From IMG/VR virus record IMGVR_UViG_3300027833_000068, positions 1 to 52,952 of that record: a stretch of DNA of 52,952 bases, one strand, 5' to 3'. Below, piece by piece: positions 28,517-45,358 of this stretch; the first letter of the stretch is position 1; each line of letters begins with the position of its first letter. A model generated the notes under the pieces. That model ran no database searches, was not told the DNA's origin, and worked only from the letters and a program-made list of their open reading frames with translations. Origin of the DNA: a virus. Its lineage: Duplodnaviria > Caudoviricetes. The position numbers and the translations under genes were made by a program.

Positions 28517-29377
28517 TTGAGAAAACGTAATTACCTTAATAATAAGGACATATTGTCAGAAATCCATAAATCTAAGAACACTTTTAATAGTTATGTGGAA
28601 TCTTCATATCATCAGTACGATTTGATACTGTTAGATATAGCTAAAATTAATAGACTAACTATTGCTGAAGCAAAAAGAGCGAAGGCTAAGAGGCTCAGCT
28701 CTGCTGAATACGAAAGACGAAAAATGGCCGGTGAAAAGGTCAAGCAAGCTGAATGTGAAACAGATTGGAAAAAGATAACAAAAGAAGAACTAATCTTCCG
28801 TGTTATGTCATTTGATCATATTCCAGAAGAGCCTGGACGTAAGAAGAATCCTAAAACTATAGCAGACACTAAGACTAAACTTAACTTTCCACCATTTCAT
28901 CATTACAAATTTAATGACGAAGGTGAGCTTGTTTTAGTTGGTAAAAGTCATTGGGTCGGTGGTATGGACAACGGGCACTTTGACAAAACACATGGTAAGG
29001 CAACAAATACACTTGCTACTATGTGGTTAAAGTTAGTAGACCGTTATGCTACTCGAGGCAATGTACGTGGTTACACATACAATGACGAAATGAAGGGTCA
29101 AGCAATACTACAATTAGCGCAGATTGGTTTACAATTTGACGAATCAAAGTCAAACAATCCGTTTGCATACTATACAGCAGCCGTTACTAACAGTTTTGTA
29201 CGTGTTATTAATATAGAAAAACGTAATCAAAACATTAGAGACGACATTTTAGAAATGAACGATCTTAATCCTTCTTACACAAGACAAGCACAAGGTGAAT
29301 GGGAAGCAGCTGTAAAACGTAACGAACAAGCACCTATTACAATCTTTAAAGATAAAAAACCGGTTGACAACAGCTAA
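28517..29377 (+). CDS. gp55: Late-transcription sigma factor, gp55-like
   Basis: TTG start with GGAG SD; NYLNNKDIL N-terminus and RGYTYNDEMKGQAI...FDESKSNNPFAYYT motif of gp55 homologues; adjacent to gp47/gp46 as in T4-like phages. Confidence 0.85.
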   Translation: MRKRNYLNNKDILSEIHKSKNTFNSYVESSYHQYDLILLDIAKINRLTIAEAKRAKAKRLSSAEYERRKMAGEKVKQAECETDWKKITKEELIFRVMSFDHIPEEPGRKKNPKTIADTKTKLNFPPFHHYKFNDEGELVLVGKSHWVGGMDNGHFDKTHGKATNTLATMWLKLVDRYATRGNVRGYTYNDEMKGQAILQLAQIGLQFDESKSNNPFAYYTAAVTNSFVRVINIEKRNQNIRDDILEMNDLNPSYTRQAQGEWEAAVKRNEQAPITIFKDKKPVDNS

Positions 29378-29423: not shown

Positions 29424-30446
29424 TTGTTTAAGAAAGCCGCTGTCTTTACCGATATTCACTTCGGTTTAAAAAGCAATTCGCGTGTTCATAATGACGACTG
29501 TGAAGAATTTATTGATTGGTACATAGAACAAGCACAAGCTGCCGGTTGTGAAACTGGTATCTTCTGCGGAGACTGGCATCACAACAGAAATAGCCTTAAC
29601 CTTACAACTATGGATGCAACTATTAGATCCATGGAAAAATTGGGTAATGCATTTGAAAAGTTTTATTTCTTTGATGGTAATCATGATTTATACTACAAAG
29701 ACAAAAGAGATGTAAATTCAACAGCATTTGCAAAACACATTCCCGGAATTACGTTTGTTGACGAAATGATGGTTGAAGAAGATGTTGCACTTGTTCCTTG
29801 GTTAGTAGGCGATGAATGGAAGAAAATACAAAAGTGTAAAGCAAAGTATATGTTTGGTCACTTTGAACTTCCTAGTTTTTATATGAACGCAATGGTTAAG
29901 ATGCCCGATCACGGAGGCGATCTTAACAAACAACATTTTGCAAATCAAGATTATGTGTTTAGTGGACACTTTCACAAAAGACAAACACAGGGTAAAATAC
30001 ATTATATCGGTAATGCGTTTCCACACAACTATGCAGATGCGTGGGACGACGATAGAGGTATGATGATATTAGATCGTGAAAACGATTTAGAACCAGAATA
30101 CATCAATTGGGAAGATTGTCCAAAGTATCGGACTGTAAAACTTTCAAAACTAATTGATGAACAGAGCACTCTTATTAAGAGTAGAATGTATCTGCGTGTA
30201 GAACTTGACATTGACATTAGTTACGAAGAAGCAAGTTTTATTAAAGAAACATTTATAAGAGATTATAAATGTAGAGAAATTACACTTATTCCCCAATCAC
30301 AAATTGAGGAAATATCAACAGACTTAGACATTAGCAAATTTGTTAGTGTTGACCAAATTGTTGCAGGTGAAATAGCAGAACTAGATACAGACTCTTTTGA
30401 TAAGGTAAAACTTTTGGAGATTTATAACGGATTGGCACATGATTAA
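29424..30446 (+). CDS. gp47: Recombination endonuclease, Mre11/SbcD-like
   Basis: Metallophosphoesterase motifs DIHFG, GDWHH, GNHD, FGHFE, SGHFH; TTG start with GGAGG SD. Confidence 0.93.
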   Translation: MFKKAAVFTDIHFGLKSNSRVHNDDCEEFIDWYIEQAQAAGCETGIFCGDWHHNRNSLNLTTMDATIRSMEKLGNAFEKFYFFDGNHDLYYKDKRDVNSTAFAKHIPGITFVDEMMVEEDVALVPWLVGDEWKKIQKCKAKYMFGHFELPSFYMNAMVKMPDHGGDLNKQHFANQDYVFSGHFHKRQTQGKIHYIGNAFPHNYADAWDDDRGMMILDRENDLEPEYINWEDCPKYRTVKLSKLIDEQSTLIKSRMYLRVELDIDISYEEASFIKETFIRDYKCREITLIPQSQIEEISTDLDISKFVSVDQIVAGEIAELDTDSFDKVKLLEIYNGLAHD

Positions 30447-32211
30447 AATTCAAGACCTAACAGTAAGAAATTTTATGAGTGTTGGGAATCAAACCCAAGC
30501 GGTAGATTTCGACAAACAACAACTTACATTAGTACTCGGCGAAAACTTAGATCAAGGAGGTGACGATTCTGGCTCGCGAAACGGTACTGGTAAAACTACA
30601 ATCATCAATGCACTAAGTTATGCACTCTACGGAAATGCATTAACTAATATTAGAAAAAATAACTTAATTAACAAAACTAATTCTAAAGGTATGTTAGTTA
30701 CTCTTTCTTTTGAGAAAGATAGTCTTCAATATCGCATTGAACGTGGTAGATCCCCAAATTTATTAAAGTTCTACATTAACAATGAAGAACAAGTTGACAT
30801 AGATGAATCGCAAGGCGATAGTCGTAAGACTCAAGAATCAATAGACCATTTGCTAGGTATGAGCCATGATATGTTTAAGCACATTGTTGCATTAAACACA
30901 TACACAGAGCCATTCCTAAGTATGCGTACTAACGATCAAAGAGCTATTATTGAACAACTTTTAGGTATTACAATATTATCCGAAAAGGCAGATGTACTTA
31001 AAGATGATATTAGAGATACTAAGGATAATCTAAGTCAAGAGACAATGCGTATTAATGCATTACAAACAGCAAACGAAAAAATTGACGAAACAATTAACGG
31101 TCTTAAAAGTAAACAGAAAGCATGGCTATCTAAACGTACTACAGACACAATAAAGTTACGTGAAGCAATTGACGAATTAGAACATTTGGACATTGAATTA
31201 GAACTAGAATCACATGAAAAATTAACAAATTGGTCTGAACTAAACAATTCTATTTTGGCTCTTAATAAAGAGAAAAGCACACTAGAGACTGCACAGTTAC
31301 GTGCTACTAAGTCTGTGTCTAAAGTTGAAAAAGATATCTTACAACTAGATAATGCTGCTTGTCATACATGTGGACAATCATTACATGCTGACAAAAAAGC
31401 AGAAATATTAGATAACAAATCTAAAGAACTAACTGACGCTGATGCATATCTTACTGAAGTATCTGATAAGTTAAATGTTGTAATTACTGAACTTTCAAAC
31501 ATTGGAGACATTAACGGTCGTCCAAATACTTTTTATGAAACTTCTAAAGAAGCGTATGCTCATAAGAGTAATGTTAGCAACTTAACACAGGCATGGAGCA
31601 ACAAAAAAGACGAAGCTGATCCATATCAAGAACAAATTGACGATCTTGAAAATAGTGCAAAACAAGAGATTGATTGGGAAGAAATTAATACGTTAACTTC
31701 GCTCAAAGAACATCAAGAATTTTTATTGAAACTACTTACTAATAAAGATAGCTTTATACGTAAAAAGATTATTGATCAAAATTTAGCATATTTAAACAAT
31801 AGACTTACTAACTATCTTGATAGATTAGGACTACCGCACAGTGTTACATTCCAAAATGATCTTAGTGTAGAAATTACACAACTTGGTCAAGACTTAGACT
31901 TTGATAACTTGTCAAGAGGCGAACGTAACAGACTTATACTTGGTATGAGTTTTGCGTTCAGAGATGTATGGGAAAGTTTGTATCAAAATATTAACTTACT
32001 ATTCATTGACGAACTTATTGACAGTGGCATGGATGCTAACGGAGTTGAAAACTCGTTAAGTGTACTTAAAAAGATGGCTAGAGAACGTGATAAAAATATC
32101 TACTTAATATCACATAAAGATGAATTAATTGGTAGAGTTAACAATGTTCTTAAAGTTATAAAAGAGAACGGATTTACAAGTTATGAAAACGATGTTCAAG
32201 TGATAGAATAA
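30439..32211 (+). CDS. gp46: Recombination ATPase, Rad50/SbcC-like
   Basis: Walker A NGTGKTT, coiled coil with CHTC zinc hook, signature LSRGE, Walker B LLFIDE, H-loop ISH. Confidence 0.95.
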   Translation: MIKIQDLTVRNFMSVGNQTQAVDFDKQQLTLVLGENLDQGGDDSGSRNGTGKTTIINALSYALYGNALTNIRKNNLINKTNSKGMLVTLSFEKDSLQYRIERGRSPNLLKFYINNEEQVDIDESQGDSRKTQESIDHLLGMSHDMFKHIVALNTYTEPFLSMRTNDQRAIIEQLLGITILSEKADVLKDDIRDTKDNLSQETMRINALQTANEKIDETINGLKSKQKAWLSKRTTDTIKLREAIDELEHLDIELELESHEKLTNWSELNNSILALNKEKSTLETAQLRATKSVSKVEKDILQLDNAACHTCGQSLHADKKAEILDNKSKELTDADAYLTEVSDKLNVVITELSNIGDINGRPNTFYETSKEAYAHKSNVSNLTQAWSNKKDEADPYQEQIDDLENSAKQEIDWEEINTLTSLKEHQEFLLKLLTNKDSFIRKKIIDQNLAYLNNRLTNYLDRLGLPHSVTFQNDLSVEITQLGQDLDFDNLSRGERNRLILGMSFAFRDVWESLYQNINLLFIDELIDSGMDANGVENSLSVLKKMARERDKNIYLISHKDELIGRVNNVLKVIKENGFTSYENDVQVIE

Positions 32212-32399
32212 TGGACGATACACACGATAAACTTATTAAAGCATATCTTATGTACTTTGAAGAAAATGAAAAGTTCGAAGCACGTAATTCTGTGAGAACA
32301 CACGGAAGTGCAAGACGTGCTTTAAGACAGTTACGTATGTTAGCAAAAGAACGTATGGACGAAATACACACTAAACATAAAGGCAAAAGTCAGAACTAG
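32211..32399 (+). CDS. Small basic hypothetical protein (62 aa)
   Basis: Coupled to the gp46 stop (TAATG); helical, Arg/Lys-rich. Confidence 0.65.
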   Translation: MDDTHDKLIKAYLMYFEENEKFEARNSVRTHGSARRALRQLRMLAKERMDEIHTKHKGKSQN

Positions 32400-32433
32400 T
32401 CTAACACCATGCAAGAAGGAAATAATTACTTGC

Positions 32434-32883
32434 ATGGAGTGGACGTACAAAGGCAAAAAACTTAAAGAAATACCAGACGAGTACGAAGGCTTCGTTTATT
32501 TAATAACGAACAAAAAGACTGGTCAAAAATACGTAGGCAAAAAACTAGCAAAATTTAAGACCACAAAGCCACCACTCAAAGGCAGAAAAAACAAACGCAG
32601 AGGATACAAAGAGTCAGACTGGAAAACTTACTATGGTAGTTCAGACAGACTTAATGCAGATGTTGCAACACTAGGCGAAAAGCACTTCACAAGAGAAATA
32701 CTATACCTATGTAAAGGTAGGGGCGAAATGTCCTACATAGAGGCAAGAGAGCAGTTTGACAGGCGAGTACTTGAAACAGATGATTACTATAATGGAATCA
32801 TTAATGTTAGAGTAGGCGGATCAGATAAACTCAAACAGGCATTACTAGAACACCACATCAAGGCAAAACAAACCAACACATAA
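32434..32883 (+). CDS. Stand-alone GIY-YIG family endonuclease
   Basis: GFVYLITN...YVGKK (GIY-YIG motif), conserved Glu (YIEAREQ) and Asn (YYNG); no obvious C-terminal DNA-binding repeats. Confidence 0.85.
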   Translation: MEWTYKGKKLKEIPDEYEGFVYLITNKKTGQKYVGKKLAKFKTTKPPLKGRKNKRRGYKESDWKTYYGSSDRLNADVATLGEKHFTREILYLCKGRGEMSYIEAREQFDRRVLETDDYYNGIINVRVGGSDKLKQALLEHHIKAKQTNT

Positions 32884-33280
32884 GGTTGGCGGGCCAGACT
32901 AGAAATACCGCTGTGGAAAAAGCTCTCGTATAGAAGCACACGTACATATTGATTGACACACCAGAGTGTGGAAGCCATCAAACAAATTGGGCTCACTAGT
33001 TGATATAGATTGCATGTTGGCAGTCGAAAAACACAAACACAGTACATAAAAACTCTTTAGCAATAGGAACGAAGCGAGAGGTAGCGCAAGCGATGTCGAC
33101 GTAGGTTGGGAAAGGTCAGAGCCCATTGTACTTTGTGTATAAACAATTACCTACTTCCAATGTCTCGGCTGGTGCGACTCACATGAAGCGTATTTTGAGA
33201 TTAGATGGGACCGTAACAGGTTCCGTCTGACTGAAACAATCTACATGAAACTTAAACATTATTACATTCGTAATAATGCA
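32884..33280 (+). ncRNA. Candidate large structured non-coding RNA (class not recognised)
   Basis: ORF-poor and visibly more GC-rich than other intergenic DNA; many helices including GU-containing stems (33201-33230; 32994-33003/33165-33174) and long-range pairs (32988-32994/33119-33125; 33006-33012/33237-33243). Confidence 0.6.
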
Positions 33281-33342
33281 TTTGTTCATATTATAATCAC
33301 TTCTATCAAACAAAAAAGTTAGTTTGAGCGTTAGCGAAAACA

Positions 33343-33362
33343 TTAAGAGCTTTAGCTCTTAA
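33343..33362. terminator. Perfect hairpin TTAAGAGC-TTTA-GCTCTTAA (possible terminator or processing site)
   Basis: 8-bp inverted repeat flanked by A-rich tracts just before the next late promoter. Confidence 0.45.
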
Positions 33363-33368
33363 CAAAAA

Positions 33369-33376
33369 CATAAATA
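33369..33376 (+). promoter_or_regulatory. Putative late promoter CATAAATA
   Basis: T4 late-promoter-like core ~30 nt upstream of the 33407 gene. Confidence 0.6.
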
Positions 33377-33406
33377 GTATTAGTAAACTTATAAGGTATA
33401 TTCAAG

Positions 33407-34147
33407 ATGAAAATAAATGATATTCTAATAGAAGCAAAAGCTGATCCTGATGTAGTAAAAAGATTTGCAGGAGTTGCTGATAGCCAACGTTCATATTACA
33501 TACACCATTGGGCAAAAGAAAAAGGCATAGACACTGATGATGCTATGCACATGGCAGGCTATGTACAAAATGGTTACTTAGGTGCTGGTGCTTGGAACTG
33601 GCGTTATGTAGGTATGGAGGAAAGTTTAGCAACCGAAGCTCCTGTAGGAATGTTAAAAAGAGCTGGACAGGCCGTAGGTGCTAAAGCACTTGGAGCAATT
33701 GGCATGAAGGGCAAAGCAGGCAACTTAGCAGGCAAAGCAGATCTTAGTGCTACAGCAAATACCTTATACAATCAATTTAGACAGTACCTTGGAACACAAG
33801 AACTAGATATAAAAAATGCAACAGGAGCATCTTTAGTTGCGTTTTTAAAATCTAAGCGTGTTAAGAAAATTGGTGCTGTTCCTAAAGGTCCACTAACTAA
33901 GCAAGTTATGGACACAGCATTTATGCAAGCCGCAAAAGAAGCAATGAATACACAGCAAGGCGTAAAAGGACCAGTTGCTAGTCCTGCTCCTAAGAAAGCT
34001 GTTGCTAAAAAAGTTCCAGTTGGATCTAGTGGTTATGTAAAGACTAAGGATGCTGCACTTCAACTCAATGCAAAAGAGAAAAGAAGATTAATTCAACAGA
34101 TTGAAAAAAGTATTAAAGTTAGTCCGGCTAAGAAACCTACTGTTTAA
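33407..34147 (+). CDS. Hypothetical protein, possible internal head protein
   Basis: Late promoter upstream; N-terminus MKINDILIEA resembles a capsid-targeting/gp21 cleavage leader; basic Ala/Gly/Lys-rich body. Confidence 0.65.
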   Translation: MKINDILIEAKADPDVVKRFAGVADSQRSYYIHHWAKEKGIDTDDAMHMAGYVQNGYLGAGAWNWRYVGMEESLATEAPVGMLKRAGQAVGAKALGAIGMKGKAGNLAGKADLSATANTLYNQFRQYLGTQELDIKNATGASLVAFLKSKRVKKIGAVPKGPLTKQVMDTAFMQAAKEAMNTQQGVKGPVASPAPKKAVAKKVPVGSSGYVKTKDAALQLNAKEKRRLIQQIEKSIKVSPAKKPTV

Positions 34148-44820: not shown

Positions 44821-44886
44821 TAGTGTGCCGCAAGGCGGACTTATGCTGTACCCACAGCGTAGCTCATAGAACGGGCATAGGACTAC
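44821..44886 (+). promoter_or_regulatory. Candidate structured 5' leader RNA
   Basis: GCC-GCAA-GGC GNRA hairpin, TATGCTGT-ACCC-ACAGCGTA stem, closing TAGT/ACTA, immediately before the SD. Confidence 0.5.
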
Positions 44887-44905
44887 TTTTTATAGGAGAA
44901 AAAAA

Positions 44906-45358
44906 ATGGGAAGACCACTTAATAAAAGATTTTTTGGACCAGCTACAGCAGATGGTAATGAAATCAAAGTAGACTTTTATAACGGTGCAGCCGTTGTTGA
45001 AGGCTATATCGTAAAGCAATTAGGATCTAAAAAGTTTCGTGTAGCGGCTATCGGTACACCAGCAACAACTTACGATCGTGTATTAACAACTGGTAAACTA
45101 CCAGCTGCGCTAACTGGCACAGAAATGTCCATTAGTGTAAAAGGTGATGACGGTGAAACTTATGGAGTAAGCAAAATTGCAGGACGTAAAGTAACACTAG
45201 CACAACCAAGTGCAACAGGTGCAAACGCATTAGATGGAACATCTATTTCGTGGAACTTTACAGCTAGTGATGGCGATTACGCTGTTGAAGTTGAAGAAGC
45301 TGGTGACGATGATACATTAATCGGAACTGACGATTCAGACTTTACTGAAAACGCATAA
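44906..45358 (+). CDS. Virion structural protein (possible head decoration protein)
   Basis: Strong SD, late promoter, directly downstream of gp23; function inferred from position only. Confidence 0.65.
   Translation: MGRPLNKRFFGPATADGNEIKVDFYNGAAVVEGYIVKQLGSKKFRVAAIGTPATTYDRVLTTGKLPAALTGTEMSISVKGDDGETYGVSKIAGRKVTLAQPSATGANALDGTSISWNFTASDGDYAVEVEEAGDDDTLIGTDDSDFTENA

Follow-up and report, generated by a model that had tools for sequence, protein, structure and literature searches.

A predicted pseudoknotted RNA next to a minimal GIY-YIG nuclease gene in a phage contig, and its relation to the Polynucleobacter-1 RNA

Do a minimal nuclease gene and the long non-coding stretch behind it form one system, or are they only neighbours? 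The question is raised by a viral contig of 52,952 nt (IMG/VR record IMGVR_UViG_3300027833_000068, rated 14% complete; the whole contig is called the window below), in which a stand-alone GIY-YIG nuclease gene of the SegE type (149 aa, 32434–32883, plus strand; PF19835, PHROG 447) is followed by 523 nt without a credible open reading frame (ORF) at 32884–33406 on the same strand. An original prediction, made from the sequence alone, had proposed that the protein and an RNA encoded in the gap form a ribonucleoprotein. Here we describe comparative evidence for a large structured RNA in the gap and argue that the gap is probably, though with real room for doubt, an autonomous non-coding RNA gene beside a variable nuclease slot, where a block with the genes gp47 and gp46 ends.

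A scan of IMG/VR started from the protein found at least 590 relatives, 80 of which were kept; in these the stretch from the nuclease gene through about 33341 is 83–89% identical to the window and gp46 71–77%. Helices were derived from 92 distinct full-length copies of 433–600 nt. The resulting 11 helices with 69 pairs are 98.7% paired, and changes on both sides of a pair are present in 32 pairs and 382 cells. When the 3’ partner was slid by 1–3 columns as a control, 32–43% remained paired with 24–46 cells showing both-sided change, and 200 permutations reached a maximum of 92.7% paired and 124 cells. The 3’ core taken alone is 89.6% paired and on every measure 0 of 500 shuffles reach the observed value, most of this core being invariant. 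Summed over the helices, about 809 cells hold G-U against about 14 with A-C, and the plus strand is therefore the folded strand. A single-sequence fold is only mildly better than those of shuffled sequences (z −1.8 for the plus and −1.15 for the minus strand), so that the proof of an RNA is comparative. On this basis we confidently predict that the gap holds a real structured RNA on the plus strand; it starts at about 32865, still within the GIY-YIG ORF’s final codons, and extends to 33341, where conservation stops. The covariation that had been put forward as a check on a pseudoknotted RNA at this locus was thus found, well above the permutations, while the RNA runs past the end at 33280 that had been assigned to it. 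The gap had also been described as the longest non-coding stretch of the window. This holds (the runners-up have 258 and 177 nt) provided that two antisense ORFs at 32899–33126 and 33179–33343 are spurious; both overlie the covarying RNA.

The predicted fold comprises two domains. The 5’ domain (32865–33030, plus strand) contains the helices 32887–92/32908–13, 32912–15/32939–42, 32946–52/33000–06 and 33008–12/33021–25 as well as a pseudoknot, in which 32873–78, belonging to the ORF’s final codons, forms base pairs with 33015–20 in the hairpin loop of 33008–12/33021–25. All cells of this pseudoknot (552 of 552) hold Watson-Crick pairs, and three of its pairs covary. The 3’ domain (33031–33341, plus strand) contains the helices 33041–46/33127–32, 33053–56/33077–80, 33101–06/33149–54, 33114–20/33226–32, 33204–12/33219–27 and 33257–65/33270–78, a variable hairpin site at 33084–92 and a conserved tail at 33323–33341. 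Helices 33041–46/33127–32, 33101–06/33149–54 and 33114–20/33226–32 cross one another; the last of them is almost invariant, so that covariation is no proof for that helix. A pseudoknotted fold, with at least two predicted pseudoknots, is supported by the alignment.

Several other identities of the gap were considered and rejected. Decayed coding sequence or small ORFs are contradicted by indels that are not multiples of three and by ORFs that are not conserved. For a tRNA or tmRNA, ARAGORN reported no gene in the window and there was no Rfam match. A group I intron would be expected neither from the Rfam search, which gave no intron match at E ≤ 10, nor from the complete gp46 and downstream ORFs, nor from flanks that vary among relatives. 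DNA similarity of the RNA to named phages was not found. Metatranscriptome contigs from four runs, belonging to three studies, extend over the GIY-YIG gene and the RNA’s 5’ domain as far as about 33044–33155, with nothing for 33186–33467; they are compatible with transcription, strand, ends and absence not being readable from contigs and DNA carry-over being possible. Many independent IMG/VR contigs end at about 33003–33052 (L003, L018, L019, L027, L052, L057, L067, L074, L075) and some contigs from RNA libraries stop nearby, which probably reflects an assembly break where variants diverge rather than an end of the RNA or of the genome.

Searched against Rfam, the region 32300–33500 of the window gave nothing at the gathering cut-off and at E ≤ 10 two chance-level rows only. 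A second protein-seeded scan, with the GIY-YIG protein of phage Melnitz as seed, reached more distant loci, whose downstream regions are of the window type, of groups C and D or of a Melnitz type. Groups C and D have non-coding stretches of 400–800 nt 3’ of the nuclease gene, and a covariance model (CM R1) built on 33092–33252 matches group C at 50–66 bits. Directly 3’ of the GIY-YIG gene, RF01718, the Polynucleobacter-1 RNA, was found at 63–108 bits in four loci and in a contig of a Polynucleobacter metagenome-assembled genome (MAG) with the order gp46, 72-aa ORF, GIY-YIG, RNA. The 3’ continuations of these RNAs are matched by the nhmmer profile of the window type (E 3e-9 to 5e-6) and weakly by CM R1 (13–22 bits). 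All subfamilies share the layout repeat R1–hairpin–repeat R2 and a GAGCG..GCGAAA tail. We use the 3’ domain, identical words in the two repeats and the tail to define an extended Polynucleobacter-1-like class, and the window RNA has all three; it forms a subtype within that class. Its 5’ domain is absent or replaced in some relatives, among them window-type loci without any such domain, and RF01718 stands in its place in others. The 3’ domain is therefore the common core and the 5’ domain exchangeable.

The window RNA is related to RF01718 itself by position, by the 3’ continuation and by habitat: sister phage loci bear RF01718 in the same place directly 3’ of GIY-YIG, and both are orphan RNAs from fresh, estuarine and marine water. 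The window RNA differs in having another type of 5’ domain, has no match to the 141-nt model at E ≤ 10 and is not a member of RF01718 at the gathering cut-off of 37 bits, which L272, L270, L289, L294 and L359 exceed. Of the RNA, that model spans no more than the initial quarter to third. It scores above its cut-off in 17 of 151 sampled Polynucleobacter-genus genomes, 4 of the 151 having two copies. The 2010 listing of Polynucleobacter-1 gives the motif 16 members, from Burkholderiales and from fresh or estuarine water, and the mark “cis-reg: y” (Weinberg et al., PMC2864571); its consensus drawing there extends well past 141 nt and bears the mark “pseudoknot?”. The nuclease link and the concerted words are absent from the table row and the supplement text of that paper, and a full-text search for the name Polynucleobacter-1 returned PMC2864571 only. 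As far as the descriptions used here go, GOLLD and ROOL are similar in being phage-associated RNAs of several hundred nt with many helices, pseudoknots and orphan function, but the window RNA has no Rfam match to those families.

Two short words within the 3’ domain set the class apart. Repeat R1 (33177–33188, plus strand) consists of ACTC followed by ACATGAAG and repeat R2 (33239–33250, plus strand) of ATCT followed by ACATGAAA; together they flank the hairpin 33204–12/33219–27. At three positions of the main alignment the words change in parallel and not in a complementary manner (A>G in 3 copies, G>A in 5, A>T in 8). The locus L127 has AC>GT in both words, and groups C and D, the Polynucleobacter-1 type and the chromosomal copies have other words, again paired. 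A statistic on the longest direct repeat failed to separate real from shuffled sequences and was replaced by a test anchored at the repeat sites. Of 235 distinct RNAs, 217 have an identical 7-mer at the two sites; shuffled sequences reach 18 of 235 and reverse complements 28 of 235. The RNAs contain no fewer than 25 different words, which differ between lineages. A variable segment beside a conserved scaffold, as had been anticipated for this locus, thus exists in the form of two identical, lineage-specific words of 7–9 nt. Two segments kept identical fit either two sites read by one partner, be it a protein or a nucleic acid in trans that is present twice, or a copying step. From the parallel changes we infer that R1 and R2 may be a specificity element, presenting the same 7–9 nt twice to one kind of partner. 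As to a partner in cis, the RNA has no covarying column and no reverse-complement 9-mer (up to one mismatch) was found within ±2.5 kb. As to a partner in trans, covariation among the 37 homologous occurrences in three phage contigs of 124, 123 and 76.5 kb (21–34% complete) is confined to R1 and R2 themselves, and the counts of the words in these contigs show no clear avoidance or excess.

The nuclease is well defined. Residues 3–123 match PF19835 (SegE_GIY-YIG) over profile positions 1–123 of 123 with E 1.8e-35, 26 residues follow the domain, and no other Pfam domain was found at E ≤ 0.01, including the separate DNA-binding domain expected of a homing endonuclease. The description of the protein as essentially a catalytic domain alone is therefore confirmed. 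Its basic segment KFKTTKPPLKGRKNKRRGYK, originally regarded as an insertion, is present, but it sits inside the family domain and occurs equally in Melnitz-type proteins without the RNA, so that it is not RNA-specific. Among 106 distinct proteins the columns FVY, Y[IV]G, KRR/ESDW, YxEA and YYN are invariant or nearly so, and we take them to contain the catalytic residues of the family, i.e. the GIY-like and YIG-like tyrosines, Arg, Glu and Asn. The ORF is intact in 173 of 173 related loci, with lengths of 134–152 aa. A sequence search of the PDB gave no match at E ≤ 1. The best PHROG match, PHROG 447 (E 2.4e-39), is labelled “NAD synthetase”; this label is widespread for the GIY-YIG family in public phage records (H5–H30, PHROG 447) and looks like a propagated mislabel.

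How closely are the two linked? Three scans started from the RNA yielded 170 phage loci that could be judged for the upstream gene, and their results weigh against an RNA that stands on its own, as do the further points of this paragraph. A window-type 28-mer was found in at least 120 stretches; of the 79 newly fetched loci with flanks, 72 had 700 nt or more upstream, and each of these 72 carries a GIY-YIG gene upstream on the same strand (61–97% identity). The group D motif is accompanied by GIY-YIG at 32 of 32 loci. For the Polynucleobacter-1-type motif 120 stretches were obtained, of which 113 were confirmed by nhmmer and 66 were judgeable; GIY-YIG is present at 63 of these, 57 times directly upstream, once overlapping and five times with an intervening gene of 257–341 aa. 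The RNA follows the ORF after 0–12 nt as counted in the window and L359, and since it abuts the nuclease ORF both are probably part of one shared transcript; the earlier statement that no terminator lies between them was borne out, no terminator-like site being found on the plus strand between the GIY-YIG ORF and 33340. The link survives a divergence of gp46 to 61–66% identity and of the nuclease to about 45–60%, and in L127 nuclease, small ORF and RNA lie between different flanking genes. Four large contigs contain exactly one RNA, as detected with CM R1, and one GIY-YIG gene each, adjacent to one another; together with the 173 intact ORFs, this is unlike the usual selfish homing gene. Where GIY-YIG is missing, another nuclease fills the slot, so that the RNA could need some nuclease. 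Finally, no partner of R1 and R2 was detected in the RNA, within ±2.5 kb or in the three partial phage genomes.

The three phage loci with the RNA and without GIY-YIG are L398, L430 and L387, which leaves GIY-YIG at 167 of 170. In L398 (1022–1543) and L430 (955–1521) a PF24608 PD-(D/E)XK nuclease (E 2.5e-29 and 5.6e-30) occupies the GIY-YIG slot after the same small ORF. L387 has a look-alike of this nuclease (a candidate, at 182–703 of the oriented locus) followed by an RNase H-like ORF. The PD-(D/E)XK protein of the slot belongs to PHROG 244, labelled “RusA-like Holliday junction resolvase”.

The coupling is nevertheless not obligate, even if near-constant in phage contigs, and each partner occurs without the other, which is not the pattern of an RNA-guided system. 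Twelve RF01718 loci of the genus Polynucleobacter were fetched. Eleven have no GIY-YIG and carry a divergently oriented DUF6641 gene instead; the twelfth is a phage-like contig. The RNA was aligned for 7 of the 11 and is full-length in all of these, at about 520 nt; its late elements are the same. Among these Polynucleobacter-genus genomes (L363–L374) the divergent DUF6641 gene (PHROG 31551) lies about 200 nt from the RNA, and L369 and L370 have an ORF that by eye is integrase-like at most about 700 nt away. A structure model of DUF6641 with a predicted local distance difference test (pLDDT) score of 79.1 gave no PDB fold match at E ≤ 0.001. Conversely, Melnitz-type GIY-YIG proteins, 68–69% identical and located in an nrdB context, are followed by no CM R1 or nhmmer match in 20 IMG/VR loci, against the expectation that close homologues keep the downstream element. 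The complete genome of phage Melnitz (141.5 kb), with its 68% identical GIY-YIG gene after nrdB, has no CM R1 match at E ≤ 1. In five cultured phages with GIY-YIG-only proteins of 40–47% identity the gaps after the gene measure 0–194 nt and no long non-coding stretch was found. A 54-kb Rickettsiales MAG contig (L360) has a 56% identical GIY-YIG, no RF01718 match at E ≤ 0.1, chance-level CM R1 rows on the opposite strand (E 0.09–0.2) and one sub-threshold Thr-leader row, also on the opposite strand.

In addition, a gene stands between GIY-YIG and the RNA in at least 11 loci, six of the window type and the five of the Polynucleobacter-1 type mentioned above. In the six (L110, L114, L117, L127, L149, L157) a varied ORF of 87–104 aa comes before the RNA and overlaps the GIY-YIG gene at the latter’s end; these ORFs have weak sub-threshold matches to PF12843 or a zinc ribbon. 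In L150 and L152 the spacer between GIY-YIG and RNA is filled by short tandem repeats with units like CAGACACCAAGTCAAAC. Because of the Polynucleobacter loci without GIY-YIG, the PD-(D/E)XK swaps, the intervening genes and the Melnitz-type GIY-YIG without RNA, we favor autonomy of the RNA.

The ribonucleoprotein of the original prediction, in which the RNA would serve the minimal nuclease as a scaffold or guide and the identical words would pair with a target and aim the cut, accounts well for the near-universal adjacency and shared orientation in phages, for a protein to which Pfam assigns no DNA-binding domain, for lineage-specific words within a conserved scaffold and for the replacement of one nuclease by another at a slot that in phages always holds some nuclease. 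It does not account for the RNA at 11 Polynucleobacter-genus loci without any GIY-YIG, for closely similar GIY-YIG proteins without RNA or for other genes intervening in 11 loci. Words of 7–9 nt are short for aiming, no covarying complementary site was found in the three contigs of 76–124 kb, and no RNA-guided or otherwise RNA-linked GIY-YIG nuclease was found in the published literature searched. Adjacency and lineage-specific words thus agree with the proposal, the coupling is not obligate and no result shows binding or guidance; we consider it very unlikely. OMEGA systems (IscB or TnpB with omega RNA) are similar in that a small nuclease gene abuts a structured RNA whose start lies within the final part of the ORF. 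They differ in their RuvC/HNH rather than GIY-YIG fold, and the window locus has neither a transposon end nor a long variable guide at one end; moreover, RNAs of the window class exist without the nuclease. A broader version, in which the RNA and whichever small nuclease lies upstream, GIY-YIG or PD-(D/E)XK, form a cognate pair with the words setting specificity as short guides or as sites read by the nuclease, also has a low probability in our view. If true, the GIY-YIG fold would for the first time be the basis of an RNA-programmed or RNA-gated nuclease.

Could the nucleases instead be free-standing homing endonucleases that settled beside a conserved RNA gene as their target? This would be compatible with an autonomous RNA. 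T4 SegB sits in a tRNA gene cluster and hence adjoins genes of structured RNAs, and the window gene shares with the T4 Seg type (SegE, SegB) the catalytic domain family PF19835 and a place between conserved genes of a T4-like block. Members of the family are found in many unrelated contexts in other phages, among them nrdB, endolysin and tRNA-Arg; in the cyanophages S-SSM4 (L227) and S-H38 (L228) GIY-YIG-only homologues lie immediately 5’ of a tRNA-Arg gene. Variable genes take the same slot, and nuclease and RNA are more similar among relatives than gp46 at the nucleotide level. Translation of T4 homing endonuclease genes is controlled, and in the window both the ribosome-binding site and the ATG of GIY-YIG are enclosed by a strong hairpin at 32407–32440 (plus strand): the fold of 32400–32450 has −15.3 kcal/mol (z −4.77) and is matched by 0 of 200 shuffles, with the ATG at 32434 in the 3’ strand of the stem. 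On the other hand, none of the 170 judged RNA-bearing phage loci has an empty slot, no decayed copy was seen among the 173 ORFs and there is a single copy per large contig. The gene is always present and intact in the window lineage, as opposed to the sporadic presence and decay of homing endonucleases, and the protein lacks the C-terminal DNA-binding part of T4 Seg proteins (149 against about 200 aa). Overall we judge the homing explanation possible but rather unlikely. The GIY-YIG protein may be a domesticated or fixed Seg-type endonuclease. Alternatively, it may be a structure-specific nuclease of the recombination block, as the swap with a PD-(D/E)XK protein of a PHROG labelled as RusA-like resolvase hints, so far as a label can.

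The RNA might also be the substrate or the antidote of the neighboring nuclease, R1 and R2 being two cut or binding sites of one protein and hence identical. RNAs of type III toxin-antitoxin systems have repeats that resemble this arrangement. That R1 and R2 are identical rather than complementary and that no nucleic-acid partner was found would fit. There is a precedent in the part of PMC11893778 used here, in which a single-domain GIY-YIG protein, Ssn, reads a hairpin motif (NTS) beside its own gene; a lone GIY-YIG domain is linked to a structured nucleic-acid motif in both cases. That motif, however, is a 28-nt DNA hairpin repeated genome-wide and cut as single-stranded DNA, not RNA (PMC11893778), whereas each genome here has a single RNA, about 480 nt long. 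The same R1/R2 layout is moreover found beside three unrelated proteins, GIY-YIG, PD-(D/E)XK and DUF6641, the modelled structure of the last matching no nuclease fold. We therefore give this explanation only a slim chance.

The RNA is part of a gene-dense region on the plus strand. A 286-aa ORF (28517–29377) is followed by a gp47-like gene (Metallophos, 29424–30446), a gp46-like gene (AAA_23/SMC_N, 30439–32211), a small ORF of 62 aa (32211–32399) and the GIY-YIG gene, and a 246-aa ORF (33407–34147) lies downstream of the RNA. The nearest named gp46 is that of Pseudomonas phage PA5oct with 49.7% identity. Four relatives of the window have 120–236 kb and are rated 33–66% complete; given the contig sizes and completeness ratings, the genome would be that of a jumbo phage of roughly 350 kb. 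The window contains a second known orphan RNA motif, RF02980 (freshwater-2 RNA), at 44824–44908 on the plus strand (68.4 bits, cut-off 49.9), which ends at an ATG.

Directly 3’ of the RNA, an 8-bp hairpin with the loop TTTA (33343–33362, plus strand) was found by folding and in the alignments. It is kept in close relatives only, other subfamilies having a covarying hairpin at the same place. The word CATAAATA (33369–33376, plus strand), which we take to be a T4-type late promoter, follows 31 nt before the ATG of the 246-aa ORF, and relatives carry it at the corresponding place. For the pattern YATAAATA 13.8 matches would be expected in the window; it has 7, of which at least 4 lie in gaps that precede ORFs. 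These elements bear on whether the RNA is a cis-acting leader of the downstream late gene, in line with the “cis-regulatory” call for Polynucleobacter-1 in the table row of PMC2864571. Although a gene on the same strand always follows in phages, hairpin and late-promoter word stand between it and the RNA, which argues that the RNA is not its leader. In addition, the downstream gene varies between subfamilies and in bacterial loci, and about 480 nt with several pseudoknots would be unusual for a leader. Such a role appears extremely improbable.

In summary, we favor an RNA gene in its own right. The RNA, about 480 nt, large, pseudoknotted and of a wide class of aquatic phages and bacterial islands, would close the early block gp47–gp46–small ORF–nuclease in this phage lineage. 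It would most likely arise by read-through of the early block, or from a start within the nuclease gene, and would end before the late promoter of the next gene. GIY-YIG would occupy a variable nuclease slot just 5’ of the RNA, the adjacency reflecting conserved gene order and not a demonstrated partnership. The partner of R1 and R2 could be a nucleic acid that acts in trans and is complementary to them, or a protein that reads sequence.

For annotation this means that the “minimal GIY-YIG” at this locus requires no exotic explanation. A 141-nt orphan motif regarded in 2010 as probably cis-regulatory becomes part of a predicted pseudoknotted RNA of about 450–550 nt, to which a subtype is added that Rfam does not detect. 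RNAs of this class abound in aquatic phage contigs and occur in Polynucleobacter genomes as well. Two short segments that are identical within each RNA and drift between lineages are a rare signature, which points to a specificity element, and these concerted words provide a direct experimental handle on the RNA.

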